DNA from: Deltaproteobacteria bacterium
GTDB taxonomy: Bacteria; Bdellovibrionota; JACOXK01
Assembly (NCBI GenBank): GCA_016182335.1
Contig: JACOXK010000057.1
Location: 706-64,705, forward strand
Length of the DNA: 64,000 nt
Direction: 5' to 3'
Of the stretch, positions 1,917 through 57,416 are shown one piece after another; position 1 is the first letter of the stretch; each line of letters begins with the position of its first letter. Position numbers and translations under genes: made by a program. Below the pieces are notes generated by a model. It made no database searches. It had not been told where the DNA came from and saw nothing but the letters and a program-made list of their open reading frames with translations.

Positions 1917-1998
1917 GAGCTTATAAATATACAATATTATTATAGAAATCTCAAAAGTTGTTGTCAATTCAAGTAGCATTGGATACACTGATTCACTC

Positions 1999-2811
1999 AT
2001 GAAAAAAATAGCTATTACAGCAGCTTTAGAAGCAGGATCAATCTTACAAAAGCATTTTGGAAGGCTTAAAAGTGTTGAAAAGAAATTTCAAGCTGGTCTT
2101 GTAACGGTTGCAGATCGAGAGTCCGAGCGCCGAATTGTTCATATCATTTCAAGGGCTTTTCCTAACCATTCCGTTCTTGGCGAGGAAGGCAGTGCCATTG
2201 ACAATAAATCAGATTATAAATGGGTCATCGATCCTCTCGATGGAACGACAAATTTTGTGCATGGATTGCAGTTTTTTTGTGTTTCTATTGGGTTGGAGTT
2301 CAAAAAAGAAATTATATTAGCGGCTCTTTATGCACCATTACTAGGAGAATTTTATTTGGCTTCTAAAAATCAAGGAGCCTATCTTTATTGTTTACCGATG
2401 CATGACAAGAAAAAATTAAGCATTAAAGACTTACGTAGACCCAAAAAACTTCATGTCTCAAGGGCCGTGAAGCTGTCAGAGTCTCTTATGGTGACGGGTT
2501 TTTCTTATCACACTACAAAAGATAAACTGAACAGGGAAATGTCAAACTTTTCAAAAATCATGTCGAAAACAAAAGCCGTTCGGCGTTTAGGGTCGGCAGC
2601 TTTAGATCTTTGTTATGTAGGTCGAGGTATTTTTGATGGTTATTGGGAAAAAGGCCTTTCTCCATGGGACACAGCAGCTGGAATTCTTGTCGTGTCTGAA
2701 GCGGGTGGCAAAGTCTCAGATTATTCAAATAAGAAATACAACTTGTATGGACCCGAAATAGCAGCTTCTAACGGGCCCATTCATAAACAATTGTTAAATC
2801 TTCTTTCCTAG
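1999..2811 (+). CDS. suhB: inositol monophosphatase family protein (SuhB-like)
   Basis: Has the IMPase motifs DPLDGTTNFVHG and WDTAAG. 270 aa. Confidence 0.8.
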   Translation: MKKIAITAALEAGSILQKHFGRLKSVEKKFQAGLVTVADRESERRIVHIISRAFPNHSVLGEEGSAIDNKSDYKWVIDPLDGTTNFVHGLQFFCVSIGLEFKKEIILAALYAPLLGEFYLASKNQGAYLYCLPMHDKKKLSIKDLRRPKKLHVSRAVKLSESLMVTGFSYHTTKDKLNREMSNFSKIMSKTKAVRRLGSAALDLCYVGRGIFDGYWEKGLSPWDTAAGILVVSEAGGKVSDYSNKKYNLYGPEIAASNGPIHKQLLNLLS

Positions 2812-13374: not shown

Positions 13375-13899
13375 TTAAGATTTGTGAATTTTATTTGAAA
13401 CCCGAAGTCTGTCGGGGAGTCCATCGTGCGAACCACACTCATGTTGTTTGGGGATGTCATGCCACCATGAGTCTTTACATTGTTCCTGTCGACTTGGGTT
13501 GAGCGGATAATATATTTTGTTTTCTTTTTTTGAAGCTTCTCCTACGACCAATAATCTCACATCTGATTCTGTATTATTAATGAAAGTATGACTAATGCCA
13601 GTACCACTTGGAAAACCAACGGCATCTCCTGGTTTTAGAGAATAAATATTTCCATTGATCCAAACATCAGGATTCCCTTCTATAACGTAAACAAATTCTT
13701 CTTCAGCACTTTCCGCATGTGGCCAGGAAGTTCTTCTTCCCGGGGGTAGAAGTTCATGATGAATTCCTAGTTTTTTCAAGCCAAAAGCCCTTCCAAATGG
13801 TGATCCGATGGATAGCAATTCTTTTGAGTTTGGATAGCTACATGAATCTGCTTCTTGGATTTCGGTATAATGTTTAATAAATTCTGGTCGTTGGATCAT
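13375..13899 (-). CDS. cupin domain protein
   Basis: Starts MIQRPEFIKHY.... The cupin motifs are G(D)AVGFPSGTGISHTF and LLVVGE. The longer track ORF (to 14022) simply reads through the tRNA gene. Confidence 0.55.
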   Translation of the reverse strand: MIQRPEFIKHYTEIQEADSCSYPNSKELLSIGSPFGRAFGLKKLGIHHELLPPGRRTSWPHAESAEEEFVYVIEGNPDVWINGNIYSLKPGDAVGFPSGTGISHTFINNTESDVRLLVVGEASKKENKIYYPLNPSRQEQCKDSWWHDIPKQHECGSHDGLPDRLRVSNKIHKS

Positions 13900-13922
13900 A
13901 ATGGAATGGTCCGAAAAAAAAG

Positions 13923-13999
13923 TGGTTGCGGGGGCTGGATTTGAACCAGCGACCTCTGGGTTATGAGCCCAACGAGCTACCAGGCTGCTCCACCCCGCG
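13923..13999 (-). tRNA. initiator tRNA-fMet (anticodon CAT), CCA encoded
   Basis: The reverse complement reads CGCGGGGTGGAGCAGCCTGGTAGCTCGTTGGGCTCATAACCCAGAGGTCGCTGGTTCAAATCCAGCCCCCGCAACCA. It matches the E. coli tRNA-fMet pattern: 3 G-C pairs in the anticodon stem and a C1xA72 mismatch. Confidence 0.9.
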
Positions 14000-14078
14000 T
14001 TAACCATCTTTTCGAAGGACATTTGTTCTTCTTAGAATCAGTTACTTGTAACGTCAGAGCTTCTAACATGTCAAGGCA

Positions 14079-27420: not shown

Positions 27421-28504
27421 AGCATTTCTTTTTCTTGAAGATGGGACGTTAATTCATGGAAAATCTTGTGGAGCCAGAGGAACCTCTGTAGGAGAGCTCG
27501 TCTTTAACACCTCTATGTCGGGTTACCAGGAGATTTTAACGGACCCTTCTTATTATGGGCAAATTATCACAATGACGTTTCCTCATATTGGCAACTATGG
27601 CACCTCACCTCTTGATGACGAATCTGACAAAGTGTGGGCCAAAGGTCTTGTTGTCAAAGATATGTGTGAAAAGCCTCGATTGAGAGCCACTCTGTCTCTG
27701 CCTAGTTACTTAGCAAACAACAATACGGTTGCCATTAGTGGGATTGATACAAGAAAACTGACAAGAAAGTTAAGATCACAAGGTTCTTTGAAGGCCGTCA
27801 TCACAACAGAATCAACTAATTCAAAGAATTTATTCAAAATTCTTGAGAAAGAGCCCCCGATGCTGGGAAGAAATTTAAGCTTTGATGTCAGTTGTAAAAA
27901 ACACTATAGAATTGAAAATAAGCAAGCACAGTGGCGAATTGTCGCAATCGATTTTGGGATTAAAAAATCAATTTTAAAATATCTGAAAGAGAGAGGTTGT
28001 GAAATACACGTCGTTCCAGCCTGGTCCACGGCGGAGGAGATCTTATCGCTTCACCCACAGGCTCTCTTTCTTTCCAATGGGCCTGGAGATCCTGCTGCTG
28101 TTACGACCGCCATTGAAACGATTCGTAACCTCGTAGGAACTATGCCTATTTTTGGGATTTGTCTTGGACATCAGCTCTTATGCCTAGCCCTTGGCGCCAC
28201 AACGTATAAGCTCAAATTCGGTCATCGGGGCGCAAACCATCCGGTATTAAATCCTGCTAAAAACAGTGTTGAAATAACGACTCATAATCATGGATTCGCT
28301 GTCAATCATCCTGGAGCTTCGAAAAGCGAAGGATCTCATGAAGTGAGCATTCAAAATCTCAACGACCATACTCTTGAAGGAATTTATGATCCAAAAAATT
28401 TTCTGCTTTCGATTCAGTACCATCCAGAGTCTTCCCCAGGCCCACTGGACTCCCTTTACTTATTTGATAAGTTTGTTGAAATGATGAGGGGGTTTCACAA
28501 ATGA
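27395..28504 (+). CDS. carA: carbamoyl-phosphate synthase small (glutaminase) subunit
   Basis: CPSase small-subunit N-domain and a GATase catalytic triad region GICLGHQLL. Confidence 0.9.
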   Translation: MHLFMATSEAFLFLEDGTLIHGKSCGARGTSVGELVFNTSMSGYQEILTDPSYYGQIITMTFPHIGNYGTSPLDDESDKVWAKGLVVKDMCEKPRLRATLSLPSYLANNNTVAISGIDTRKLTRKLRSQGSLKAVITTESTNSKNLFKILEKEPPMLGRNLSFDVSCKKHYRIENKQAQWRIVAIDFGIKKSILKYLKERGCEIHVVPAWSTAEEILSLHPQALFLSNGPGDPAAVTTAIETIRNLVGTMPIFGICLGHQLLCLALGATTYKLKFGHRGANHPVLNPAKNSVEITTHNHGFAVNHPGASKSEGSHEVSIQNLNDHTLEGIYDPKNFLLSIQYHPESSPGPLDSLYLFDKFVEMMRGFHK

Positions 28505-29136
28505 TTGCTGAGCAGTATTTAGATCGCATTATCGAAACTTATACGACCGGAAAATATGAGCAACAGGTTCGACATGCTAAGGGAGAGTTTTTTAAATTAA
28601 CAGGTGTTGTTTTTGAAAATGACCCTTTTTTTGAAGAAAGAATGGATTTATTTCTTGAATGGTACCTCTTTACAAGGCCTTTAGACAATCACGATATGCC
28701 CCCGGTTAAACTATTTTATTTAGAGGGAGAAAAAAAGTTTAATCATGAAGAACGAGATGTTTATTTTGGATTAACGCAAATTCTCCACAGTCTATTTCAA
28801 CTTAAAAAAATTAAGAAAAATATTTTTTATTTGAAAGATTTTTTTATGGATAAAGCGGTTCAAGTTTGTGTGACTGATACTTTAACTCTGAGTTGTGGAG
28901 ATATATTCGAAGCGCGTCTCATACCGTATCAGGGAAAATATTATTTTGGAAAAGGTTTTTGTTATCATTCCCCTCAAACTAAAACTTTTATAGAACAGAG
29001 AATTAAAAAGATTAAACATCTTGATGAAACCTTCAAACAAAAATTGCTTTTGGATTTAGCTTCGATGAGATTAAAGCATGATCGCTACCCGCACATTGAT
29101 CTTAAACATATTTACTCGCTTGATTCTAAAATTTAA
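28501..29136 (+). CDS. hypothetical protein translationally coupled between carA and carB
   Basis: 211 aa with no recognisable motif. Its start overlaps the carA stop and its stop overlaps the carB start (TAATG). Confidence 0.5.
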
Positions 29137-32100
29137 TGCCAAAGCGAACTGACATTCATAAAATTTTAATTATCGGATCTGGCCCCATCGTGATTGGTCA
29201 GGCCTGTGAGTTTGATTACTCTGGAACACAAGCCTGTAAAGCGCTTAAAAAAGAAGGTTTCGAAATTGTTCTTGTCAATTCGAACCCTGCAACCATTATG
29301 ACAGACCCGCAAGTGGCAGATAGAACTTATATTGAACCACTAAATATTTCGTTTCTTGAAAAAATTATTGAAAAAGAAAAACCAGATGCGCTTTTACCAA
29401 CATTGGGAGGTCAAACAGCGCTTAATTTAGCAAGAGCCCTTGCTAAAAGTTCATTTCTACAAAAACATGGAGTGTCACTTTTAGGGGCAAGTCTCTCTGC
29501 TATCGAAAAAGCGGAAGATAGAGAGCTCTTTAAAAAGGCCATGCAAGAAATTGGTCTTCAGGTACCCCATAGCTTTACTGTTAAGTCTCTGGCTGAGGCT
29601 TATCGTGCGTTAAATCATTTAAACTTTCCTCTCGTTATCAGGCCTTCTTACACGTTGGGAGGTATGGGTGGCAGTATTGTTTATAATTCACAGGAGTTTA
29701 GTGAATATCTTCAATGGGGATTTAATCAAAGTCCTGTTCACGAAGTTTTAGTAGAGGAATCAGTTTTAGGATGGAAAGAATTTGAGCTCGAAGTCATGCG
29801 CGATAAAGCAGACAATGTCATTATTGTTTGTTCTATTGAAAACTTTGATCCGATGGGTGTTCACACGGGGGATAGTATTACGATTGCACCCCAGCAAACG
29901 CTGTCGGACAAAGAATATCAAGTTTTAAGAGAGGCTGCTAAAAAAATTATACGAAAAATTGGTGTTGAAACGGGTGGATCTAACATTCAATTCGCTGTGC
30001 ATCCAGAAACAGGAAAAATGGTTGTGATTGAAATGAATCCCAGGGTTTCTAGAAGCTCTGCTTTGGCCTCTAAGGCTACAGGCTTTCCGATTGCTAAAAT
30101 CGCAGCTTTGTTAGCTGTGGGGTACACCCTGCCGGAAATTCAAAATGATATTACATTGAAAACGCCTGCGTGTTTTGAGCCTGTATTGGATTACGTAGTA
30201 ACTAAAATTCCTAGGTTTAATTTCGAAAAATTTCCTCTGACCCCACAAGTGCTGACGACTCAAATGAAATCAGTGGGAGAAGTGATGGCAATAGGGCGGA
30301 CATTTAAGGAATCACTTGGTAAGGCGCTTCAATCTTTGGAAGTAAGTGTTCCCTCTTTTTGCGACCTGTCCAAGAATCAGATTAAAGAGCAATTGAACAT
30401 TCCTAGTCATAAAAGAATTTGGCTTATCTATGAAGCGTTTCGAAAGGGGGTTTCAGTCGAAGAGGTAGCACATCTTTCAAAAATTGATCCCTGGTTTTTG
30501 TATCATGTTGAAGAATGTGTGGGGTTAGAAAATGTCATTGCCCATCACAAAATCTGTAGGGATTGGAAAGATATTTTTGCTCACTCAGACAGCGCTCCTC
30601 GGGAGCGACACTCAAGGTCTCTCCCTGCGGTGCGAACTCGCCGCAAAAACACTTCCCAATCCTTTTCAAATTTTGTTAGTCTTTTAAAACAAGCCAAGCA
30701 GTGGGGGTTTTCAGACGCTCATGTTGCAAAACTTTGTCATCAATCACCACAAGACATCGAAAGCTTAAGAATTTGCGAAAACATTCAGCCTGTTTATAAA
30801 GTTATTGATACATGCGCTGGAGAGTTTGAATCTTACACGCCTTACTTATACTCAACTTATGACGATGAAGACGAATCGAAAATAAGTTCAAAAGAGAAAG
30901 TTGTTATTATCGGAAGTGGTCCCAATAGAATTGGTCAGGGAATAGAATTTGATTATTGCTGTGTTCATGCAGTGATGGCATTGAAGGGCATGGGTTACGA
31001 AACGATTATGATCAATTGTAATCCAGAAACTGTGAGCACTGATTATGATACAGCGGATAAGCTTTATTTCGAGCCCTTAACGTTTGAGCATGTTCTTCCC
31101 ATTTTAAAGTTGGAAAATCCTTGTGGAGTTATTGTTCAATTAGGAGGGCAAACCCCTTTGAAACTAGCACAAGAAATTGAAAGGGCTGGATTTAAAATTT
31201 TGGGAACAACGGTGGCAACAATTATGTCTTGTGAAAATCGTGAGTTTTTTTCAAGTATTGTGGAAGAGCTAGGCTTGCGACAGCCTCAACATGAAACGGC
31301 GACTTCAAAAGAGCAAGCTTGCGATGCTGCAGAAAAACTTGCTTTTCCACTTGTGGTGAGGCCCTCTTTTGTTTTGGGCGGGCAATCGATGGAAATCATT
31401 TATGACATGGACAATATGAAACGATATTTGTCTGTCGCCTTTGAAGGGTCCTCTGACAATCCTCTTCTGCTTGATCGCTACATTGAAAATGCAACGGAGG
31501 TTGATGTTGATGTCCTGTGTGATGGAAAAGATGTTTATATTGCTGGGGTTTTAGAACACGTGGAAGAAGCGGGGGTTCACTCAGGTGATAGTAGTTGTTC
31601 GCTTCCCGGGTTTAGTCTTTCTGAAAGTAAAATTAAAAAATTGGAAGAACAAGCAACAGCCATTGCCAAAAAACTACAGATTTGCGGATTGATGAATATT
31701 CAGTTTGCTCTACTGAGTGATTCAATTTATGTCCTGGAAGTTAATCCCAGAGCTTCTCGTACGATTCCATTTATTGCCAAGGTGACAGGTCTTCCCCTTG
31801 TTAAAATAGCTACTGAACTGATGATGGGTAGACCATTGTCATTGCGAGGAGTTCCTTGGGCGACGCGGGAATCTATTCCTTTCTTTGCTGTTAAGCGCTC
31901 TGTATTTCCCTTTATAAAATATCCTCATGAAGACTGTATTTTAGGCCCTCAGATGAAATCTACAGGTGAAATCATGGCGATTGAAAAAAGTTTTCCAATG
32001 GCCTTTGCAAAGGCTGCACAGGCTGTTGATTCCCCACTTCCATCTGAAGGTGCGGTTTTTATAAGTGTTAAGAATGAGGATAAATCACAAGCGTTTGAAG

Positions 32101-32453
32101 TGGCAGCCGAACTTTTGAAATTAGGTTTTTCAATTACAGCAACCCGGGGTACGTGCGAGTATTTTAAGAGCAAAGGGTTACACAGTGTTGCTTCAATTAA
32201 TAAAGTTCTTGAAGGACGTCCTCATATTGTGGATGCGTTGAAAAGTCGGGCACTTCATTTAGTGATTAATACGACAAAAGGTGAGCAAGCTTTGAGGGAT
32301 TCATTTGATATTCGAAGATGTTCTTTGGAACTAAATATTCCTTATTTTACAACTATTTCAGCTGGACTGTGTGCCGTTCAAGCCATTCAGGCAATGAAGC
32401 AAAGAGATTTTGAGATATTTTGCCTGCAGGATCTGCATACCCTTACCTACTAA
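29136..32453 (+). CDS. carB: carbamoyl-phosphate synthase large subunit
   Basis: Two ATP-grasp halves ([22 protein letters not shown] ... [23 protein letters not shown]) and an MGS-like C-terminal domain. 1105 aa. Confidence 0.95.
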
Positions 32454-32565
32454 GGGGGATATTGATTCTTGTTTATGGAGAAAAAACTCATTTTGTGACC
32501 TATGATTTTTTCAGAGAGAAAAGCAAGTAGAAAGGCAAAAATAAATCTTAATGGAACGACTATCA
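32452..32565. repeat. left copy (R1) of a ~110-bp direct repeat; degenerate duplicate of the 3' end of the gene at 33878..34810
   Basis: It is ~93% identical to 33863-33978 (7 mismatches and 1 indel over 108 bp). The reading frame decays, so it is non-coding here. Confidence 0.7.
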
Positions 32566-32577
32566 TACAAGAAATAC

Positions 32578-32606
32578 TTGCTGTGCCATTTGCTTGAAGC
32601 TATATT
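32578..32606 (+). promoter_or_regulatory. sigma70-like promoter TTGCTG-N17-TATATT upstream of the cassette gene
   Basis: Read directly from the sequence, ~40 nt upstream of the ATG at 32649 (preceded by GGAAAG). Confidence 0.3.
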
Positions 32607-32648
32607 TATTCTGTTTTGATTTCTTTAAAAGTGAAGAATTGGAAAGAA

Positions 32649-33317
32649 ATGAACGAGAATAAGAGTATAAGATCCATGCTGTGGTTCATCGTGTTTTTAT
32701 TCACTATGCTGTTAAATAACACAGCTCTGGGAAAAACTCCGAAGGAGTGTGTAGATTTATTTGATCGGAAAATCAAGCACTTAAAAGGAAAACCAGAATG
32801 CCTATCTTCTTGTCTCGCTGTAACAGTAGATATGGGGACTTTTCTTTGTACATCTACCAATTCTTATTGTCAGGAATATTGCACTCCATGCAAAGATCCT
32901 ATTCTTATTCATTTTGACGGGAAAAATCTCAAAATTATTCGAAATTGCTCCAAAGTTCTGGGTGCATGGAAAGCTGTATCTGGGGGAGCAAATGGAAGTG
33001 AAGTCATTTTTCCGTGGACTAAAATCCAAGGCGGGCCGGTACCGAAAGGCAGGTGCTTCATTAATCCGAAGGAAATAACCGAACCCTCACTTAAAAGACC
33101 TATTTTCTTTTTTAGTCAAGCATCATGGGGGAAATTTAGAGTTCCGTTACACCCGGAGAAAGAAATGAATGTCTTCGGAAGGGGTGGTTTTTTCATTCAT
33201 GGAGGTAGAGAGTATGGAAGCGCAGGCTGTATTGATCTTGATGATCACGAGCTACCCTTTTTTACTTGGCTCAAAAAACAGACTGGCATTATCCCAGTTG
33301 AGATCAAATATGAGTAG
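32649..33317 (+). CDS. secreted Cys-rich protein with L,D-transpeptidase-like (YkuD/DUF2778-like) C-terminal domain
   Basis: Signal peptide MNENKSIRSMLWFIVFLFTMLLNNTALG, then a Cys-rich segment with 10 Cys in ~60 aa. The C-terminal FFIHGGREYGSAGCIDL matches the His...Gly-Cys catalytic signature of L,D-transpeptidase-fold enzymes. Confidence 0.5.
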   Translation: MNENKSIRSMLWFIVFLFTMLLNNTALGKTPKECVDLFDRKIKHLKGKPECLSSCLAVTVDMGTFLCTSTNSYCQEYCTPCKDPILIHFDGKNLKIIRNCSKVLGAWKAVSGGANGSEVIFPWTKIQGGPVPKGRCFINPKEITEPSLKRPIFFFSQASWGKFRVPLHPEKEMNVFGRGGFFIHGGREYGSAGCIDLDDHELPFFTWLKKQTGIIPVEIKYE

Positions 33318-33843
33318 TTCATGGAAACTCTTAATCTTCTTTTTTTTTATGTCGCCATTGCCAATCACGACTATTTACGCAAAAGATCCTGCATTATTAA
33401 GTCCCAGTGAAGTACTCAGCCTTAAACCTGGTACAAAGGAATTAAAACAAAGGCTCATGTGGGAATATCCAAAACTGACTGATCCAAATGAACTTTATTC
33501 CGGAATGCTCGACGTTTTAAAATGGTATCCCAATGACCAAGAGTGGATTAACCTTTTTGGGAAACTACTTCGTGATAAGAAAAGAAGAATCTACGCCATG
33601 ATAGCTCTTGGCAAATATAAATCTCGAAAATATGAAAAACAAATTTATGCCATTTGTATTGATAAAGGGAAAGTAGTCTGGGAAGCATTTCAAAGTTTAT
33701 TTGAAATGAATTCTCCCTATCTGTTAAAAGCTGTGGAAAAGGCAAAAAGCCAGGCTTCAAATGAAACAAACATTAAAGAATCTAGAAAACTTCTCGAGAC
33801 TATTGAAAAGAAATATTATGAGCGCCAGAGGCGCCCAAAATGA
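33310..33843 (+). CDS. secreted HEAT/PBS-lyase-repeat-like protein (candidate immunity/partner protein)
   Basis: Starts at ATG 33310 (MSSSWKLLIFFFFMSPLPITTIYA is a signal peptide), overlapping the stop of the upstream gene by 8 nt. The rest is helical repeat-like. The N-terminal part of the track ORF is out of the real gene. Confidence 0.45.
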   Translation: MSSSWKLLIFFFFMSPLPITTIYAKDPALLSPSEVLSLKPGTKELKQRLMWEYPKLTDPNELYSGMLDVLKWYPNDQEWINLFGKLLRDKKRRIYAMIALGKYKSRKYEKQIYAICIDKGKVVWEAFQSLFEMNSPYLLKAVEKAKSQASNETNIKESRKLLETIEKKYYERQRRPK

Positions 33844-33862
33844 CAAAGCAGTTCTACTCCCG

Positions 33863-33978
33863 CTAAGCCGATATTGATTACTGTTTATGGAGAAAAAACC
33901 TCATTTTGTCACCTATGATTTTTTCAGAGAGAAAAACAAGTAAAAAAGCAAAAATAAATCTTAATGGAACGACGATCA
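33863..33978. repeat. right copy (R2) of the ~110-bp direct repeat; constitutes the genuine 3' end of the gene at 33878..34810
   Basis: See R1. Here the repeat is in frame and encodes the C-terminal ...LVFLSEKIIGDKMRFFLHKQ. Confidence 0.7.
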
Positions 33979-34810
33979 GAAAAGGAGCGCCTATCATCAT
34001 TACAAGAGCACTGTCCTCAATGTAGCTATGCGAAATACCCAGTAATAAATGGGAAAAAAGGATTTCTCTATGAGTGATTGCTCCTGAATGAGATTGCTCA
34101 ATGATGAGACCACCGCCATAGGCAAGACCAAGAGTCAATCCAATGACAACAGTGGGGATAGCGTGCGACCCAATTCCAAGAGGTTTTAAAACTGGATGAA
34201 GAAAACGGGTTAAATATTTTGTAAAACCTAAAAGTTCTAGAATATTGAGAACCCCAACAAGCAGGGTGATGATGAGAAAAATAAGAAATAGCTGCCATGC
34301 TTGGTGAAGCACCGTATTGAATAATGGAGATGAGACCCACAGGGCTTGTGAAACTTTCCAAGTAATAACGGTTGAGTCTTGAAATAACCCTAACTTTTTA
34401 AAAATGAGAGAGGCAAACATTCCAAAAAGAAATGAAGAAAAAATTCTAAAGAATAAAATGGGAAGTATCTTTAAACCTGATTTATGTGCAATTTTGATCT
34501 CAACGAGTAAATTGTGTGCCATAAGCATCATCGTTCCTAGAATGCCAACCTCAGCAGCATTGAGAGGCGCATGGCTCGCTATTGTTGCATAAGCTGTAAT
34601 ACCCCCGTAAATATTGGTAATCATTGCTGAAGCCAATACAATCCCCATGTCTCCAGAGAGCCCAACGATATTCATGAGAGGAGAAAGAAGATTTCCTAAT
34701 ATTTCTATGGCACCTATGCGTTTTAAAATCTCAATAATGAAAATAAGTGGAATAAGGATTTTATAGAGTGAAAAAGTAATACGCCAAGATTTGTGTAGCC
34801 AGAGTTTCAT
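33878..34810 (-). CDS. polytopic membrane protein, nucleoside-recognition (Gate) domain family
   Basis: 310 aa with ~8 predicted TM helices. Gly-rich membrane segments typical of Gate-domain (YjiH/SpmA-like) proteins. Confidence 0.45.
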   Translation of the reverse strand: MKLWLHKSWRITFSLYKILIPLIFIIEILKRIGAIEILGNLLSPLMNIVGLSGDMGIVLASAMITNIYGGITAYATIASHAPLNAAEVGILGTMMLMAHNLLVEIKIAHKSGLKILPILFFRIFSSFLFGMFASLIFKKLGLFQDSTVITWKVSQALWVSSPLFNTVLHQAWQLFLIFLIITLLVGVLNILELLGFTKYLTRFLHPVLKPLGIGSHAIPTVVIGLTLGLAYGGGLIIEQSHSGAITHREILFSHLLLGISHSYIEDSALVMMIGAPFLIVVPLRFIFAFLLVFLSEKIIGDKMRFFLHKQ

Positions 34811-34812
34811 TA

Positions 34813-37800
34813 TTATATTTTTTCAAGTGACAGCTCAATTTTTTCACCATCAATTTCAAAAGTCTCAGTGTGTTGCAGCCCTGTTTTTTCAACGGCATTG
34901 ATAGAACGGGCAAGGACCTGGGACTGGATATAATTTTTATTTTTTTCAATGGCCTCTGCCAGACGGTTAGTACCTCTGTATTGAAGCTGAATGCGATCAT
35001 CCAGGTTCAAGTTTGCATTTTTTCTCATTTTTTGAATGCGACTGACAATCTCTCTGCTCTGCCCCTCAAGAATTTGTTCTTGATCGATAGTTGGATCTAA
35101 ATCAATAGTAATAAATTGATTAGAAGAAGACATTTCATGTCCTTTTTGTTGTTGTCTTTGAATCTGAATATCGTTTGATGATATTTTTTCGCCAGAAATA
35201 GTGAGAACCTCTCCAGCTTCTAATTTCAAAATATCTTCGTGTGAAAGGGTTGAGAGAGACTTGATGATGTTCTTCATTTTTGAGCCGAATCTGGGGCCTA
35301 AGATTTTGTGATTGGGGGTAGCCTGAAGTTTGATAAACATCGATTCATGTGAGTCGTAGACGATAGTTTTAACATTTAATTCTTCTCTGATAGCTTCTTC
35401 AAGTTCTGAATACCTCTGTGAAAAGAGCTTTAATACACTTGGGTCTCTATGAATAATCGTTAAGCTTTTCAATGGAATTTTAATTTTAGCTCCAATTTTT
35501 TCTCTGAGATTGCGTCCCATGACTAAAATATTTTGCATGCGTGCTATGGTATTTTCTAAATCTAAATCAATAAGATCAGTTTTTCTCTGCGGCACAAAAT
35601 CTAAGTGGACACTAGTTTTTTTCTCACTCGCTGCAATCCAAAGTTGTTGGTAAATTCTTTCACTGAGGAAAGGCGTAAATGGAGCCATAATTTTTGTAAA
35701 TTGAAGAAGTACTTCATACAAAGTTTCAAAAGCACATTTTTTATCTTCAGAGGCTTCTTCAGACCAAAATCTTTTGCGATTAATTCTTATATAAGTGTTT
35801 GTAAGTTCTTCAATAAAATCCAGAAGAATAGGTACGACATTATAAACATGGTATTTTTCCATTTCCTCTTGATAACGCTGAATGAGAGTTTGAAGACGAG
35901 ACAAGATCCAGCGATCAAAGATATTTAATACCCTCTCCCCTTGAGGCAGTGGGCTAGGGTGAGGGGTGAACTTCTCTATCTGTGCATAACTCATGAAAAA
36001 AGAATAACTATTCCACCACTTGAGCAGTACCCTTCGGACAACATCCTCAACTCCTTTTTCGCTGAATCGAAACTCTTCAGCACGTACTGCTGGTGAGTTA
36101 ATCAGGTAAAGTCTCAAGGCATCAGCTCCGTATTTTTCTAATACCAGAGAAGGATCTGGGTAGTTTTTCAGACGTTTGCTCATCTTCTTGCCATCTTCAG
36201 CAAGAAGAAGGCCGTTCACAATGACGTTTTTGAAGGGAGATTTTTTAAAGAGAATACTTCCAAGAACGGAAAGCGTATAAAACCAGCCACGCGTTTGATC
36301 GAGTCCTTCAGCGATAAAGTCAGCAGGAAAGTTTTTTTCAAAATCTTTTTTATTTTCAAAAGGATAGTGCGCTTGGGCATAGGGCATGGAGCCGCTTTCA
36401 AACCAACAATCAAGAACCTCAGAGACTCTTTTATAAACACCTTTTTCTCCATTGATGGAGAAAGAAGCTGTATCGATAAAGTGTCTATGAATGTCAGAAA
36501 ACTTTCTTTGGGTGCGTTTTTCAAGTTCTTCGAGAGACCCAATGCAGATGGTTTTTCCTGATACTTCATTTTTCCACACAGGTATGGGACAACCCCAATA
36601 GCGGTTTCTAGAAATGGCCCAGTCTCTAGCGCCTTCCAACCACTTTCCAAAACGTCCTAATTTAAGATGCTCTGGAACCCAATTTGTTTTTCCATTGCAT
36701 TCAATAAGTAGCTTTTTTATTTCTTCAACTTTAATAAACCAAGAACAAATAGCTCGATAGATAAGGGGTGTTTCTGATCTCCAGCAAAAAGGATAGCTAT
36801 GTTGAATGGTTTCTTGACGGAGGAGCAGGCCTCTTTCCTTCAATATCTGAATAATGCTTTTATCAGTATCTTTAACATACATTCCCTTGTAATGAAAAAC
36901 CTCTTGAGTAAATTTGCCATCGTCATCGATGGGGCACACAATGGGGATGTTATTCTTCTGACATACCTGAAAATCATCCTCACCAAAACCGGGCGCCATG
37001 TGTACGATGCCCGTTCCATCTTCCATAGTGACAAACTCAGCTGAAAGAATTGCAAATGCATTTTCAGTTTTTACAAAATAAGGGAAAAGGGGTTTGTATC
37101 CCCTCCCTACTAGTTTTTTTCCAGGGAATTTTTCTTTGATTTCAAAGAGATCTGAATCTGGATAGTAAATAGAAAGCCGCTTATGTGCCAAAATAAAATT
37201 TTTAGAGAGTTTTTTATCATAAATTTCAATGTATTCTTCTTCAGGGTGAACAGTTAACGCTAGATTGCTAGGAAGTGTCCAGGGTGTTGTCGTCCAAGCC
37301 AAGAAGAAAGTATTATCCTGTTCAACACTTTCGAACAGAACAGTTAATGAGGGACTTTGAATTTCTTTATAATTCAAATTTGCTTCAAAATTAGAAAGTG
37401 GGGTTGTACAGGCTGTTGAATAAGGCATTACTTTATAACCTTCATAAATCAGCCCTTGGTTCCAAATTGATTTAAAAACCCACCATACGGATTCCATATA
37501 TTTCAAATCCATTGTTTTGTAGGAGTTATTAAAGTTGACCCATCGGCCTATTCGACGAATTGTTTTTTCCCACTCTTGCGTATATTTCAACACAATGCTT
37601 CGGCAGGATTCGTTGTATTTATCGATACCAAAGTCTTCGATAGCTTTGCGACTTTCTAATCCCAGAGATTTATCGATTTCATGTTCCACTGGTAAGCCAT
37701 GACAGTCCCACCCAAAGCGCCTTTCAACTCGATAGCCTTTCATGGTCCAGTAACGAGGTATAACGTCTTTTAAAATGTTTGGAATAAAATGACCGTAATG

Positions 37801-37962
37801 GGGAAGACCCGTGGCAAATGGAGGACCGTCAAAAAAAACAAACTGTTGAGAAGTAGGACGCTCTTCAACGCTTTTTTCAAAAATGTGTTCTTTGTCCCAA
37901 AAATCAAGTATTTCGTGTTCGGCTTTCGGGAAGTCTATGGATGGGGCGAATTTATCTATCAT
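34813..37962 (-). CDS. ileS: isoleucyl-tRNA synthetase, type 2 (eukaryote/archaeal-like)
   Basis: FVFFDGPPFATGLPHYGH (the HYGH form of the HIGH motif, typical of type-2 IleRS), KMSKRLKN (KMSKS), editing domain. 1049 aa. Confidence 0.95.
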   Translation of the reverse strand: MIDKFAPSIDFPKAEHEILDFWDKEHIFEKSVEERPTSQQFVFFDGPPFATGLPHYGHFIPNILKDVIPRYWTMKGYRVERRFGWDCHGLPVEHEIDKSLGLESRKAIEDFGIDKYNESCRSIVLKYTQEWEKTIRRIGRWVNFNNSYKTMDLKYMESVWWVFKSIWNQGLIYEGYKVMPYSTACTTPLSNFEANLNYKEIQSPSLTVLFESVEQDNTFFLAWTTTPWTLPSNLALTVHPEEEYIEIYDKKLSKNFILAHKRLSIYYPDSDLFEIKEKFPGKKLVGRGYKPLFPYFVKTENAFAILSAEFVTMEDGTGIVHMAPGFGEDDFQVCQKNNIPIVCPIDDDGKFTQEVFHYKGMYVKDTDKSIIQILKERGLLLRQETIQHSYPFCWRSETPLIYRAICSWFIKVEEIKKLLIECNGKTNWVPEHLKLGRFGKWLEGARDWAISRNRYWGCPIPVWKNEVSGKTICIGSLEELEKRTQRKFSDIHRHFIDTASFSINGEKGVYKRVSEVLDCWFESGSMPYAQAHYPFENKKDFEKNFPADFIAEGLDQTRGWFYTLSVLGSILFKKSPFKNVIVNGLLLAEDGKKMSKRLKNYPDPSLVLEKYGADALRLYLINSPAVRAEEFRFSEKGVEDVVRRVLLKWWNSYSFFMSYAQIEKFTPHPSPLPQGERVLNIFDRWILSRLQTLIQRYQEEMEKYHVYNVVPILLDFIEELTNTYIRINRKRFWSEEASEDKKCAFETLYEVLLQFTKIMAPFTPFLSERIYQQLWIAASEKKTSVHLDFVPQRKTDLIDLDLENTIARMQNILVMGRNLREKIGAKIKIPLKSLTIIHRDPSVLKLFSQRYSELEEAIREELNVKTIVYDSHESMFIKLQATPNHKILGPRFGSKMKNIIKSLSTLSHEDILKLEAGEVLTISGEKISSNDIQIQRQQQKGHEMSSSNQFITIDLDPTIDQEQILEGQSREIVSRIQKMRKNANLNLDDRIQLQYRGTNRLAEAIEKNKNYIQSQVLARSINAVEKTGLQHTETFEIDGEKIELSLEKI

Positions 37963-38031: not shown

Positions 38032-38526
38032 ATGAGAATTCAATACCTTATCCTATTAACACTGTCTGGCTTCGTTGTAGCACTTGATCAAGTAACAAAA
38101 CTTTATGTTTCATCTCATTATCTACTTGGACAGACATTAGTTATCCTTGAGAACGTACTTCATGTAACTTACAGCAAGAATGTTGCTGGGATGTTTGATA
38201 TGTTTCAAAGTGTTTCTGAAGGGATACGTCTTTTTTTCTTTCTTCTGATTCCAGCCATAGCAATTGTCTTTATTTTAGGTGTGGTTATTAAGTATAAAAA
38301 TCTAGCTCTTGGATCAACGATTGGTTTTTCTCTCATTGTAGGTGGTGCTTTGGGAAATATGTTAGATCGAATTCGATTTCAATCGGTGATTGGTTTTCTT
38401 GATTTTGCATTTTTACCAAAAAGACATCCTATGAATGTGGCTGATTTCTTCCTTCTTTTGGGAGGAGCCATTTTGTTTGTTTGTATTGTGCGATCAAAAT
38501 TTTTAGCACAAGATAAAATCTTATGA
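38032..38526 (+). CDS. lspA: lipoprotein signal peptidase II paralog
   Basis: LspA boxes VALDQVTK, NVAGMFDMF (N-x-G-x-x-F), IGFLDFAF, MNVADFFLLLG (FNVAD-like). 164 aa with 4 TM. Confidence 0.65.
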   Translation: MRIQYLILLTLSGFVVALDQVTKLYVSSHYLLGQTLVILENVLHVTYSKNVAGMFDMFQSVSEGIRLFFFLLIPAIAIVFILGVVIKYKNLALGSTIGFSLIVGGALGNMLDRIRFQSVIGFLDFAFLPKRHPMNVADFFLLLGGAILFVCIVRSKFLAQDKIL

Positions 38527-39029
38527 AAAAAACATATTTTCTTATACCGTGGGTTTCTTTTTGGGTGGTTTTAGATCAAGTTACCAAGTATTTGATTAGC
38601 GTTAAACTAGAGTTACACGAATCTCTCGCTCTCATTCCGGGTTTTTTAAGTTTTACATTTATTTATAATGAGGGTGGAGCTTTTGGTTTTCTATCAGGGC
38701 AATCTGAAGTGTTAAGAAATCTTATTTTTGTACTCATTCCTATTTTCGTTATTGGACTGATTGTTTACCTGTGCATCAAAGCACCTTCCCACCAAAAGTT
38801 GCATATTGTAAGTCTTGGACTTGTTTTGGCTGGGGCTTTTGGGAATATGATTGATCGTTTATGGTTAGGAAAGGTTCGGGATTTCATTGATTTTGACTTA
38901 AGTTTTATCCTTGGTTTTTTCTACCATTGGCCTGCTTTCAATGTTGCAGATTCGACGATCTGTGTTGGGGTTTTTCTCTTGGCGTATCACATGCTTTTTC
39001 TTGATAAGAAAGACTCTGCATCCTTATGA
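38523..39029 (+). CDS. lspA: lipoprotein signal peptidase II
   Basis: VVLDQVTK, IYNEGGAFGF, VRDFIDFDL, FNVADSTICVG are the canonical LspA motifs. 168 aa. Confidence 0.8.
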   Translation: MKKTYFLIPWVSFWVVLDQVTKYLISVKLELHESLALIPGFLSFTFIYNEGGAFGFLSGQSEVLRNLIFVLIPIFVIGLIVYLCIKAPSHQKLHIVSLGLVLAGAFGNMIDRLWLGKVRDFIDFDLSFILGFFYHWPAFNVADSTICVGVFLLAYHMLFLDKKDSASL

Positions 39030-39823
39030 TTCCAGTTTTGTTTAAAATCCCTCTTCCTTTTTTAAATCAACCGTTTGAAGTAAGAGCCTATGGGGTTCTC
39101 ATAGCCCTTGGTTTTCTATTGATATTGCCATTAGCTATTCGTCAGGCGCGCAAAGAGGGAATTTCTTCAAATACAATTATCGATGTTGGTTTTTGGGGGC
39201 TTTTAATGGGCCTCATTGGTGCCAGGGTTCTTTACATTGTAACGGAATGGGAAGCTTATAAAGCAGATCTGGTTTCAATTTTTTACCTTTGGGAAGGTGG
39301 GCTTGTATTTTACGGAGGGTTACTTGCTGGTTGTGCAACCCTTATTTTTTACGCAAAGAAGAAACACATACCTTTAGGAAAACTCTTAGATGTAGGTGCT
39401 CCCGCAGTTGCTTTTGTGCACTTCTTTGGTCGACTTGGTTGCTTAGCAGCAGGTTGTTGTTTTGGTAAGCCAACACAACTTCCATGGGGGATATTTTTTA
39501 AAAATCCGGAGGCCTTTGCACGGCCTTTAAACACCCCTCTTCATCCTACACAGATATATGAAATGGGAGGGCTTCTTTTTTTGTTTGTATTTCTCTATTT
39601 TGTATTAAGCAAATATAAGAAATTTGATGGGCAGCTGGCCTTGTCGTATTTGATTCTTTATTCCGTGTTTCGTTTTGTGGTAGAGTTTTTCAGAGGGGAT
39701 GATATTCGAGGGTTTGTCATACCCAATCTTATTTCCACTTCTCAGTTTGTGAGTCTTGTAATTTTTCTTGTAACTGTACCCGTCTTTATTTATTTTTATA
39801 AGAAGGCCAAAATTAAGCGATAG
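39026..39823 (+). CDS. lgt: prolipoprotein diacylglyceryl transferase
   Basis: Lgt signature GARVLYIV ... FGRLGCLAAGCCFGKPT in a polytopic membrane protein. 265 aa. Confidence 0.85.
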   Translation: MIPVLFKIPLPFLNQPFEVRAYGVLIALGFLLILPLAIRQARKEGISSNTIIDVGFWGLLMGLIGARVLYIVTEWEAYKADLVSIFYLWEGGLVFYGGLLAGCATLIFYAKKKHIPLGKLLDVGAPAVAFVHFFGRLGCLAAGCCFGKPTQLPWGIFFKNPEAFARPLNTPLHPTQIYEMGGLLFLFVFLYFVLSKYKKFDGQLALSYLILYSVFRFVVEFFRGDDIRGFVIPNLISTSQFVSLVIFLVTVPVFIYFYKKAKIKR

Positions 39824-39875: not shown

Positions 39876-41039
39876 ATGTTCCGTAGAGTAATAAAACTTA
39901 GTCATTCCAATAGCTTCTTCCTGTTTGGCCCGAGGGGAACTGGCAAAACAACACTCATAAAACAGCTCTTTTCAAATGATCATGTTTTATGGATAGATTT
40001 ACTCAAAGATGAAGATGAAGAAAAATTTCGAATTAATCCAGACCTACTATCTGAAATTTTGGCAAATAATCCTTATGAATGGGTTGTTATTGATGAGGTT
40101 CAGAAGATTCCAAAGCTGCTAGACATCATACACCTGGAAATTGAAAAGAAAAAAACGAAGTTTGTCTTGACCGGATCTAGCGCTCGAAAGCTTAAAAGAG
40201 GAGCTGCGAATCTCCTGGCAGGTAGAGCATTTACCTATCAACTCTATCCACTGTGCCACATAGAACTTGGTGATTCTTTTCAATTGGAAGATCTGCTTCA
40301 ATTTGGGTCCCTACCTCATCTCTATGAACTTACAACAAAACAAGATCGTATAGAATTTTTGAGAAGTTATGTAAAAACCTATTTGAAAGAAGAAATTTTG
40401 TCAGAGCAGCTGATAAGAAAAGTCGATCCTTTCCGAGATTTTTTGGAAGTTTCTGCACAAACTAATGGACAAATTATTAGCTACGAAAAAATAGCGGATG
40501 ATCTTGGGGTGGATGGGAAAACTGTTCAGACTTATTTTCAAATCCTTGAAGATACTTTGTTAGGATTTAAACTGGAATCCTATCATCGATCTGTCAGAAA
40601 GAGGCAGAGGGTTGCCCCTAAATTTTATCTTTTTGATCTTGGTATCAAGCGTGCTTTAGATCATTCCATGAAGCAAGAACTACAGCCTGAAACTTATGAT
40701 TTCGGGCAAGCTTTTGAGCACTTTATTATTTTGGAGACACAAAGATTGAATGAATATTTTCGGCTTGATTTTAAGATGTCTTATTTACGTACTAAAGACG
40801 GAGCCGAAATTGATCTTATTATTGAAAGACCTGGTGAAGCAACCATTTTAGTAGAAATTAAATCAACAAAAAATACAACGAGTCGACATACATCTCATTT
40901 GGAACGATTTTATAAAGATTGGGGAAAGACTGTGGAAGCACATCTTTGGTCCCTCGACCCGCATGAAAAGAAAATTGGAAATGTCATTTGTCTTCCGTGG
41001 AAGAAAGGCCTCAGCGCTGCAGGTTTTAGACAGAATTAA
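39876..41039 (+). CDS. AAA+ ATPase with C-terminal DUF4143-like (restriction-endonuclease-fold) domain
   Basis: Walker A FLFGPRGTGKTTL, Walker B VVIDEVQ, C-terminal ...EIDLIIERPGEATILVEIKSTKN. 387 aa. Confidence 0.7.
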   Translation: MFRRVIKLSHSNSFFLFGPRGTGKTTLIKQLFSNDHVLWIDLLKDEDEEKFRINPDLLSEILANNPYEWVVIDEVQKIPKLLDIIHLEIEKKKTKFVLTGSSARKLKRGAANLLAGRAFTYQLYPLCHIELGDSFQLEDLLQFGSLPHLYELTTKQDRIEFLRSYVKTYLKEEILSEQLIRKVDPFRDFLEVSAQTNGQIISYEKIADDLGVDGKTVQTYFQILEDTLLGFKLESYHRSVRKRQRVAPKFYLFDLGIKRALDHSMKQELQPETYDFGQAFEHFIILETQRLNEYFRLDFKMSYLRTKDGAEIDLIIERPGEATILVEIKSTKNTTSRHTSHLERFYKDWGKTVEAHLWSLDPHEKKIGNVICLPWKKGLSAAGFRQN

Positions 41040-52406: not shown

Positions 52407-52800
52407 CTAAGAGAGCCACCTTGTAAGCCGGGTTCTGTTTCCCTTGATTCAAGGGAGACAATCATCTATCTGGAGAAGTCATTACTGACCTCTTCTTGCG
52501 GACGACCCAAAGAGATAGGAACGAGCAGCTCCCGGGGGTTAACCCTCTCTTTCGTTTGCCCTTGCACCAGGTGGGGTTTACCATGCCAAGTGAGTCACCC
52601 CACTTGCGGTGAGCTCTTACCTCGCCGTTTCACCTTTACCACACTAAATACAAACCCAAGCTGGGATGACCTTAATGTGGAAGTCTATTCTCTGTGGCAC
52701 TTTCCTTCAGGTTACCCTGACTGGACGTTATCCAGCACCCTGCTCTACGGAGCCCGGACTTTCCTCTAGAAATTCTAGCGATCGTCACCAGTAGCTCTCT
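52407..52800 (-). ncRNA. rnpB: RNase P RNA (bacterial type A)
   Basis: The minus strand contains GGAAAGTCCGGGCTCC (P4 5' strand), ...GGTAAGAGCTCACCGCAAG..., ...GGTAAACCCCACCTGGTGCAAGGGCAAA..., and the 3' ACAGAACCCGGCTTA (P4 3' strand). Terminal P1 pairing is AGAGAGC / GGCTCTCT. ~395 nt. Ends are approximate. Confidence 0.85.
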
Positions 52801-57342: not shown

Positions 57343-57416
57343 TGGGCCCAGTAGGACTTGAACCTACGACCCACCGGTTATGAGCCGGTTGCTCTAACCA
57401 ACTGAGCTATGGGCCC
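57343..57416 (-). tRNA. tRNA-Met (anticodon CAT; elongator Met or lysidine-modified Ile2 type), no encoded CCA
   Basis: The reverse complement reads GGGCCCATAGCTCAGTTGGTTAGAGCAACCGGCTCATAACCGGTGGGTCGTAGGTTCAAGTCCTACTGGGCCCA. It folds as a cloverleaf. 74 nt. Confidence 0.85.

Follow-up and report, generated by a model that had tools for sequence, protein, structure and literature searches.

The 64,000-nt window analyzed here, positions 706–64,705 of contig JACOXK010000057.1 from a metagenome-assembled genome (MAG) deposited as a Deltaproteobacteria bacterium (GCA_016182335.1), contains a compact unit between carB, which encodes the large subunit of carbamoyl-phosphate synthase, and a convergent gene for a membrane protein with a Gate domain, here termed the Gate gene. 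The unit spans 1,298 bp (32572–33869), comprises two genes only, designated A and B, and is flanked by direct copies of the 3' end of the Gate gene. The interpretation that we favor, with slightly better than even confidence, is that A and B encode a Sec-exported peptidoglycan toxin and its periplasmic immunity protein and that a recombination event brought the pair into the 3' end of the Gate gene and, in doing so, duplicated or replaced the gene's tail. The resemblance to a peptidoglycan-targeting effector/immunity pair, pointed out in an initial annotation of this DNA, is well supported by homology, domain architecture, and conserved pairing, with the correction that A has its own predicted signal peptide and is not, in the strict sense, an effector of the type delivered by a type VI secretion system (T6SS).

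The Direct Repeat

The flanking copies form one continuous direct repeat of ~114 nt (32458–32571 and 33870–33984) that is 91–93% identical in a MAFFT alignment, with nine mismatches and one indel in 114 columns; the first 103 columns contain six mismatches and one indel (~93%). A repeat search of the interval 31500–35000 reports the same relationship as two direct pairs, one of 91 nt (32481–32571 and 33894–33984, 91% identical, spacing 1413 nt) and one of 30 nt (32458–32487 and 33870–33899, 93% identical, spacing 1412 nt), that are separated by a 1-nt indel. The ~93% direct repeat described in the initial annotation is thus real, but its ends lie 6–7 nt away from the coordinates given there. 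Two stretches of 24 and 26 nt shared exactly by both copies occur at just these two sites in the window (0/100 shuffles), and tblastn detected no third copy of the Gate tail peptide, which argues that the repeat is not a common multi-copy intergenic element, a possibility that the initial annotation had listed for checking.

The right copy (33870–33984) comprises the 8 nt past the stop codon and the last 35 codons of the Gate gene (33878–34810, minus strand) and is its working, in-frame 3' end; the C terminus reads ...SEKIIGDKMRFFLHKQ (equivalent to ...IVVPLRFIFAFLLVFLSEKIIGDKMRFFLHKQ) before the stop. The left copy (32458–32571) begins 4 nt past the carB stop codon (32451–32453) and appears to be a displaced and decayed duplicate of the last ~32–35 codons of the Gate gene and the 8 nt downstream. 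Read on the minus strand, it gives IVVPLRFIFAFLLAFLSEKIIGHKMSFF before a 1-nt deletion shifts the frame, and the former Gate stop codon TAA has become GAA, in agreement with its earlier description as a decayed, non-coding duplicate. It could extend as far as CTAAG at 32450–32454, which would take in the carB stop. Both copies start to match at the Gate codons ATC GTC GTT (Ile-Val-Val), and the changes between them comprise four synonymous and four to five non-synonymous substitutions, one frameshift, and one loss of a stop codon. RNA folding of the left copy together with the region upstream of A is no better than that of shuffled sequences (z +0.25).

An independent Logan assembly (run SRR12113430) matches positions 34877–33189 of the window over 1,689 nt at 100% identity and confirms the junction that runs from the Gate gene through the right repeat copy and B into the 3' part of A. 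The left junction has no long k-mer in common with the right copy, and a false join at this point is therefore unlikely.

Gene A

Gene A (32649–33317, plus strand) encodes a protein of 222 residues that was analyzed through Pfam, its homologues, an AlphaFold2 (AF2) model, Foldseek, and a profile search of the PDB; the NCBI annotation begins instead at a GTG codon at 32631 and gives 228 residues (protein P0001). The three features that had been noticed at the outset, a signal peptide, a Cys-rich N-terminal domain, and a C-terminal catalytic motif, were all recovered. The predicted Sec signal peptide, judged by eye, occupies residues 1–28 (32649–32732) and consists of MNENKSIRSMLWFIVFLFTMLLNNTALG before the sequence KTP. 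It is followed by a domain of ~55 residues (~29–83) that has three helices in the AF2 model and eight Cys, all of which are kept in P0002, the sole full-length homologue of A (49% identity). The C-terminal ~140 residues (~84–222) constitute a domain with the Tlde1/YkuD fold, in which alignment and the PDB profile search place the catalytic motif FFIHGGREYGSAGCIDL at 33189–33239 of the plus strand. No LysM or PG_binding domain was found in A by Pfam, and the N-terminal domain, a Cys-rich helical bundle, is unrelated to the peptidoglycan-binding or scaffold domains of L,D-transpeptidases (Ldts).

The search with hidden Markov models that the initial annotation had proposed gave a divided answer: Pfam YkuD (PF03734) scores 25.0 bits, above its cut-off of 23.4, and is the sole family over its cut-off, but Tlde1_dom scores 24.5 bits, below its cut-off of 30.1. 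PHROGs, PADLOC, and NCBIfam returned nothing useful. A search of 5.8 billion proteins yielded 16 matches, including A itself and P0002; the remaining 14 are PF10908 (DUF2778/Tlde1_dom) proteins that are 32–45% identical to the C-terminal part of A. Precomputed PF10908 matches are on record for P0002–P0016. In eight homologues (P0003–7, P0009, P0011, and P0016), a junction of the Rhs type, ...NDPxxxxDPxGL, directly precedes the stretch homologous to A, which indicates that the domain boundary in A coincides with the boundary of a polymorphic-toxin module.

Against the PDB, the profile of the A family matches Tlde1a of Salmonella at 5.4e-9, with GFFIHGG...GSAGCI aligned to GFYIHDSTKGYSHGCI. In this alignment His184, Cys194, and Ala192 of A correspond to His121, Cys131, and His129 of Tlde1a, respectively. 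His184 and Cys194 are invariant in the 16 aligned sequences, and 15 of these, including A, have S-A-G-C (S-E-G-C in P0002). The spacing of 10 residues from His to Cys is of the short Tlde1 type. The AF2 model (pLDDT 80.8) also has Tlde1a as its best Foldseek match (E 1.6e-5), ahead of LdtMt2, Ldt_Mab2, and Ldt_fm (E 1e-4 to 4e-3). With 14 PF10908 matches, eight DPxGL junctions, and Tlde1a as the best PDB match, A groups with the Tlde1/DUF2778 toxin domains and not with the housekeeping Ldts, the outcome on which its earlier assignment depended.

Mobile-element collections contained no close relative of A: the plasmid collection gave just two distant matches, both from Ralstonia, and the viral contigs gave 14 distant Tlde1-like matches (30–57%). 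These Tlde1-like domains are encoded on fourteen viral or prophage contigs of IMG/VR (L010–L023), which suggests that phage-like elements are a further vehicle of the toxin domain. A small hydrophobic open reading frame (ORF) comes next in at least two of them (L010 and L011); on other contigs the following ORF is larger and has a hydrophobic N terminus, or nothing obvious follows.

Gene B and Its Pairing with Gene A

Gene B (33310–33843, plus strand) encodes 177 residues and overlaps A by 8 nt (ATGAGTAG), as the initial annotation had it. When translated from the upstream ATG, the product has a predicted signal peptide at residues 1–24, MSSSWKLLIFFFFMSPLPITTIYA before KDP. A hydrophobic leader followed by (K/R)DP is also present in homologues of B from two other loci, P0138 of L005 (75% identity) and that of L001 (52%), and this conservation favors the long start over the 164-residue NCBI call. 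The AF2 model of B (pLDDT 76.8, built from two sequences only) is all-helical, and the predicted fold is an α-solenoid of paired antiparallel helices that resembles HEAT repeats. The description of B as a secreted helical-repeat protein therefore holds at the level of predicted signal peptide and model; its HEAT-like character is supported by the predicted fold and not by the sequence, for which no HEAT model gave a family at E<=1.

No match to B was found in Pfam, NCBIfam, PHROG, or PADLOC. Its relatives amount to one other match in 5.8 billion proteins and one fragment of 79 residues among 1.84 billion representatives, a near-lack of relatives that fits the fast evolution of immunity genes. 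BLASTP and hhalign detected no similarity between B and the neighbors of distant Tlde1-domain genes.

Wherever sequence upstream of a B homologue exists, it contains an A homologue, and the question raised earlier, whether the two genes are adjacent elsewhere, is thereby answered in the affirmative. Intact pairs with a stop/start overlap are found in the window (8 nt) and in L001/L002 (11 nt). In L005 (1–1201), a decayed remnant of A lies just upstream of B: the A homologue begins at the equivalent of residue ~120, is preceded by 125 nt of G-rich sequence that is unrelated, and has a frameshift within a poly-A run; the B homologue is intact to residue ~148 and then diverges completely. This contig could represent the remains of a toxin whose immunity gene has been kept, or it could be chimeric or erroneous. 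L008 contains only the 3' end of B. The B homologues thus occur in four contexts, next to the Gate gene in the window, a convergent lipoprotein-like ORF in L001, unrelated sequence in L005, and the start of a hisC-like gene in L008, and the Gate tail is absent from all but the first of these.

Small genes of varied kinds, tightly linked as in toxin-immunity bicistrons, also follow the distant Tlde1-domain genes; they encode multi-transmembrane (TM) proteins in L006, L010, L011, and L025 and a weakly HEAT_2-like protein in L007. This variety matches the diversity reported for the immunity proteins of the DUF2778 superfamily, which include DUF2195 proteins, unannotated Sec-exported proteins, and TM proteins (bioRxiv 10.1101/2020.02.18.954545).

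Origin and Function of the Cassette

The arrangement of the repeat copies suggests a single, Campbell-type recombination between the Gate tail and a molecule that carried a near-identical tail together with A and B. The event, possibly mediated by an integrase acting in trans, would have crossed over near Gate codons 279–281 (ATC GTC GTT), so that the Gate gene kept a working tail, the right copy, and the displaced tail, the left copy, was stranded beside carB, where it would later have lost its stop codon and its frame. Insertion into a gene terminus, which the initial annotation had suggested, is supported by this footprint, similar to that of prophage e14 at icd in Escherichia coli, and by the variable contexts of the pair, although neither an empty site nor a recombinase was found. 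Three origins remain for the inserted DNA: (i) a remnant of a larger element, (ii) a cassette mobilized in trans, and (iii) a capture that was not site-specific and produced a long target duplication.

The searches found a single close relative, L004, a groundwater scaffold from Rifle in which the Gate protein is 74% identical. This scaffold keeps the order ileS then Gate, followed by two unrelated convergent ORFs (1631–2394, minus strand), and ends before the far side of the site. One of the two ORFs encodes a secreted protein of 153 residues that matches phrog_20092 (2.5e-15), and its end overlaps the Gate tail by 33 nt; the ORF pair is possibly an alternative cassette at the same site. The DNA similarity of L004 to the window ends at 33968, within the right repeat copy, and the two Gate proteins are ~78% identical up to residue 281 and ~24% identical over the last 29 residues. 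The break falls at the ATC GTC GTT codons, that is, at the inner boundary of the repeat, and its position suggests a preferred crossover point. L004 does not serve to polarize the differences between the repeat copies, its tail being too diverged for reliable alignment. Beyond L004, a scan of genome contigs with the Gate protein gave just a 36%-identical locus in Desulfuromonadales without carB, scans of metagenome contigs with the Gate and B alignments found nothing, and the 90%-identity clusters of carB, ileS, and a 211-residue ORF upstream of carB have a single member each.

With respect to function, A would be a disulfide-rich, Sec-exported protein whose C-terminal domain acts as a Tlde1/DUF2778-type L,D-carboxypeptidase or transpeptidase on the stem peptides of periplasmic peptidoglycan. 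B, the translation of which would be coupled to that of A by the 8-nt overlap, would be a periplasmic HEAT-like solenoid that binds and blocks A in the producer and thus serves as the immunity protein.

Several observations weigh against this combined reading of insertion and toxicity. The divergence of the two repeat copies does not decide between two alleles that were both once functional and a duplication followed by decay. Terminal inverted repeats are absent from the cassette ends. A Pfam scan of the 34 larger ORFs of the window gave no integrase or transposase family, nor does the cassette itself, which holds A and B only, encode a recombinase, as had been noted before. No empty site was found, and the collections searched contained no strain-level relative; moreover, the C-terminal divergence of the Gate protein from L004 could be ordinary variability of the tail. 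The candidate idea that A and B are compositionally foreign was rejected, since their GC content, GC content at third codon positions (GC3), and codon usage are typical of the window (z −0.88, +0.50); the insertion would then be old, or from a close relative, or not horizontal. On the side of function, A falls below the Tlde1_dom cut-off, has Ala where Tlde1a has His129, and belongs to a family whose profile alignment lacks the ~23-residue insertion found in Tlde1a at the position of the capping subdomain. B has no sequence similarity to known immunity families by Pfam or hhalign, and a comparison with the weakly HEAT_2-like neighbor in L007 gave an hhalign probability of 0.4%, that is, no detectable relation. 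Finally, with its own signal peptide, A would flood the periplasm of the producer, and there is no evident route into another cell; no secretion-system or T6SS family was identified among the 34 ORFs scanned.

The alternative that survives best, although we regard it as unlikely, concerns the origin of the cassette: with the same gene content, but with neither a site-specific mechanism nor a mobile element, A and B may have been taken up at the carB/Gate junction when a staggered break was repaired or through template switching in replication. The fill-in of ~114–122 nt of local sequence would then be a long target duplication whose unused left copy has decayed. The lack of a recombinase and of inverted repeats and the native composition are all compatible with such an event, as are the inactivating changes in the left copy, which are those expected of neutral decay. 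In addition, the sequence CTAAG before the right copy (33862–33866) is the same as the stop context of carB (CTAAG, 32450–32454), a hint that the duplicated block was the local junction of carB stop and Gate tail, but a match of 5 nt may be due to chance. Bacteria rarely show target duplications of more than 100 nt. The fraction of synonymous differences, four of ~9, lies above the ~25% expected for pure neutral decay, although not significantly so, and the similarity to L004 breaks off at the same codon, which favors a preferred crossover point.

A still less probable alternative is that A and B are an endogenous, vertically inherited pair, a periplasmic enzyme that remodels peptidoglycan and its regulatory or inhibitory partner, and that an old local rearrangement left the repeat behind as its scar. 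The Sec signal peptide is as in a housekeeping Ldt, YkuD is the one Pfam family above its cut-off, the base composition is native, the module lies between core housekeeping operons, and the window ORFs scanned include no secretion-system genes. Against these points, the nearest relatives of A are DUF2778 toxin modules, including those at Rhs C termini, and not housekeeping Ldts, its His-Cys spacing is the short one of Tlde1, and it has no peptidoglycan-binding domain. The A–B family is also extremely rare, with a different context in each genome, and in one homologous pair the A side appears decayed and B is largely retained.

A bolder variant, to which we give little credence, would make A a diffusible, disulfide-rich LD-peptidase bacteriocin exported by Sec, with the Cys-rich N-terminal domain mediating entry into target cells, and at the same time make Gate codons ~279–281 a dedicated attachment site for mini-cassettes that lack a recombinase, consist of a surrogate tail and a secreted payload, and are mobilized in trans, L004 having a different two-gene cassette there. 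That the arrangement is an artifact in which a metagenome assembler joined two strain variants at a common sequence is very improbable: the source is a MAG contig and the independent confirmation covers the right junction and not the left, but the copies, each surrounded by unique sequence, differ at ~9 positions, no k-mer that could mediate a false join is common to the left junction (where the tail meets the region upstream of A) and the right copy, and the Logan assembly reproduces the right junction at 100% over its 1,689 nt.

Genomic Context

The window is core genome, and the cassette sits between two housekeeping operons. The gene order is a copA-like ATPase, lepA, lepB, pyrB, pyrC, carA, the 211-residue ORF, carB, A, and B, followed by the convergent Gate and ileS genes and then by lspA, lspA, and lgt. 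The carB gene (29136–32453, plus strand; from the ORF list and the NCBI name of the exact protein) is the last gene of the pyrB-pyrC-carA-ORF-carB run, in which the neighboring pyr genes were assigned by Pfam, and the cassette begins just past its stop. The Gate gene encodes a protein of 310 residues with a nucleoside-recognition domain (PF07670, Pfam Gate 1.2e-10) and lies 2 nt downstream of, and in the same direction as, ileS (34813–37962, minus strand), an order kept in the 74%-identical relative L004.

The initial annotation described the unit as equipped with a promoter. The sequence TTGCTG-N17-TATATT is indeed present at 32578–32606 of the plus strand, but as a candidate promoter it matches only 8 of 12 consensus positions (3/6 + 5/6), a consensus promoter scan did not report it, and the region is no richer in promoter-like sites than shuffled sequences are. 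Transcription of A and B by read-through from carB is equally possible. On the minus strand, the 3' end of B contains, within its last codons (ERQRRP), a G+C-rich hairpin at 33819–33837 (GGGCGCC-UCU-GGCGCUC) followed by a T-rich tract; this structure, which is not retained in the B homologue of L008, is terminator-like and may now end the ileS-Gate transcript.

Further features of the window were recorded in passing. The 211-residue ORF between carA and carB (28501–29136, plus strand) lies within the carAB operon and overlaps both neighbors, by 4 nt at the carA stop and by 1 nt at the carB start; it has the lowest GC content of the neighborhood (0.316), and has no match in Pfam, NCBIfam, or PHROG. 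Beyond ileS, 38032–39823 (plus strand) contains two tandem, overlapping lspA (signal peptidase II) paralogues of 164 and 168 residues and then lgt. An AAA_14/DUF4143 ATPase at 39876–41039 (plus strand) matches the PADLOC candidate defense family PDC-S01 (6e-65) and is followed by an ORF of 515 residues without a Pfam match and by a DUF4423 protein. The RNA genes include two for tRNA-Met(CAT), at 13923–13999 and 57343–57416, and a class-A RNase P RNA at 52408–52798, all on the minus strand; the ORF 13375–14022 of the six-frame list, which overlaps the first tRNA, is probably spurious.

Comparison with Known Systems

The A–B cassette is a tidy but not unprecedented insertion footprint, and it belongs to a known kind of system that does not overturn current understanding. 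If A and B are a toxin and its immunity protein, the range of the Tlde1/DUF2778 peptidoglycan-toxin domain widens to include an architecture that is exported by Sec and independent of the T6SS, from an uncultured lineage of 'Deltaproteobacteria', and B would represent a new immunity family, HEAT-like in fold and almost without relatives in public data. The repeat would be a clean, datable scar of the way in which a minimal toxin-immunity cassette can enter a junction of the core genome with the target gene preserved, and it bears on the spread of small cassettes without a recombinase of their own.

Tlde1 and its immunity protein Tldi1, first named Tae5 and Tai5, provide the best sequence-profile and fold match to A (Tlde1a of Salmonella Typhimurium, PDB 7UMA/7UO3). 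A and Tlde1a share a fold derived from L,D-transpeptidases and a His and a Cys placed 10 residues apart (H184/C194 in A and H121/C131 in Tlde1a), and both are encoded in a bicistron with a Sec-exported partner (bioRxiv 10.1101/2020.02.18.954545; PMC9638812). Tlde1 is toxic in the periplasm only and is neutralized by its Sec-exported immunity protein (bioRxiv 10.1101/2020.02.18.954545); periplasmic action, established for Tlde1 (bioRxiv 10.1101/2020.02.18.954545; PMC9638812), would by analogy apply to A. The catalytic pocket of Tlde1a is formed by H121, H129, and C131, and the H129A mutant shows wild-type exchange of D-amino acids and loses most of the cross-linking and part of the carboxypeptidase activity (PMC9638812). 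By analogy with this mutant, the natural Ala at the H129 position appears compatible with activity in the A subfamily and may shift it.

In contrast to Tlde1, A has its own signal peptide and a helical N-terminal domain with eight Cys, and no T6SS family occurs among the 34 window ORFs scanned; A also has S-A-G-C in place of S-H-G-C, lacks the capping insertion, and scores below the Tlde1_dom cut-off. The partner B lies downstream and not upstream, and with no Pfam match it is not identified as DUF2195. The host of A, a 'Deltaproteobacteria' MAG, lies outside the α, β, and γ range reported for the DUF2778 superfamily, domains of which also occur as parts of Rhs proteins and in the vicinity of other secretion systems (bioRxiv 10.1101/2020.02.18.954545). 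Given the signal peptide, the S-A-G-C motif, the missing insertion, and the sub-threshold Pfam score, A is best filed as a Sec-exported module of the Tox-LD-peptidase/DUF2778 type and not as a strict T6SS Tlde1 effector.

Tox-LD-peptidase domains are listed with trafficking by signal peptide ('T2SS', the type II secretion system), T6SS, and Rhs proteins (Zhang et al. 2012, PMC3482391). The systems that pair them with Imm16 or Imm57 (PMC3482391) resemble A–B in that the LD-peptidase module of A is C-terminal, behind a variable trafficking N terminus, and in that B is a tightly linked downstream gene whose HEAT-like fold has a counterpart in a recognized immunity class. That class, Imm-HEAT, has been described with other toxins (Ntox34 and Tox-REase-7) and not with an LD-peptidase (PMC3482391). 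B differs in having no Pfam match and no detected relation to Imm16 or Imm57, and it is HEAT-like by predicted fold only.

The housekeeping Ldts of the YkuD family are similar to A in Pfam assignment and fold, but A has neither their canonical HXX14-17(S/T)HGChN spacing nor a peptidoglycan-binding or scaffold domain.

Bdellovibrio has a DD-endopeptidase, Bd3459, and an ankyrin-repeat protein for self-protection, Bd3460. This pair resembles the proposed A–B pair in that a Sec-exported enzyme that modifies peptidoglycan is encoded alongside a secreted helical-repeat inhibitor, and it differs in both the enzyme fold and the type of repeat; nothing indicates that the organism represented by this MAG is a predator.

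For the insertion, the closest parallel drawn here is prophage e14 at icd in E. coli K-12. There, the 3' end of icd supplied by e14 and the displaced icdC pseudogene form a direct repeat of 165 nt that is ~92% identical, and the homology ends just past the stop codon. In both cases the repeat is the 3' end of the target gene (165 nt at ~92% in e14, 114 nt at ~92% in the window), and the gene is completed by one of the copies, the second being stranded as a fragment beyond the insert. The two differ in that e14 is 15.2 kb long and carries intE and xisE, whereas the cassette described here is 1.3 kb long, contains no recombinase, and has a decayed displaced copy.

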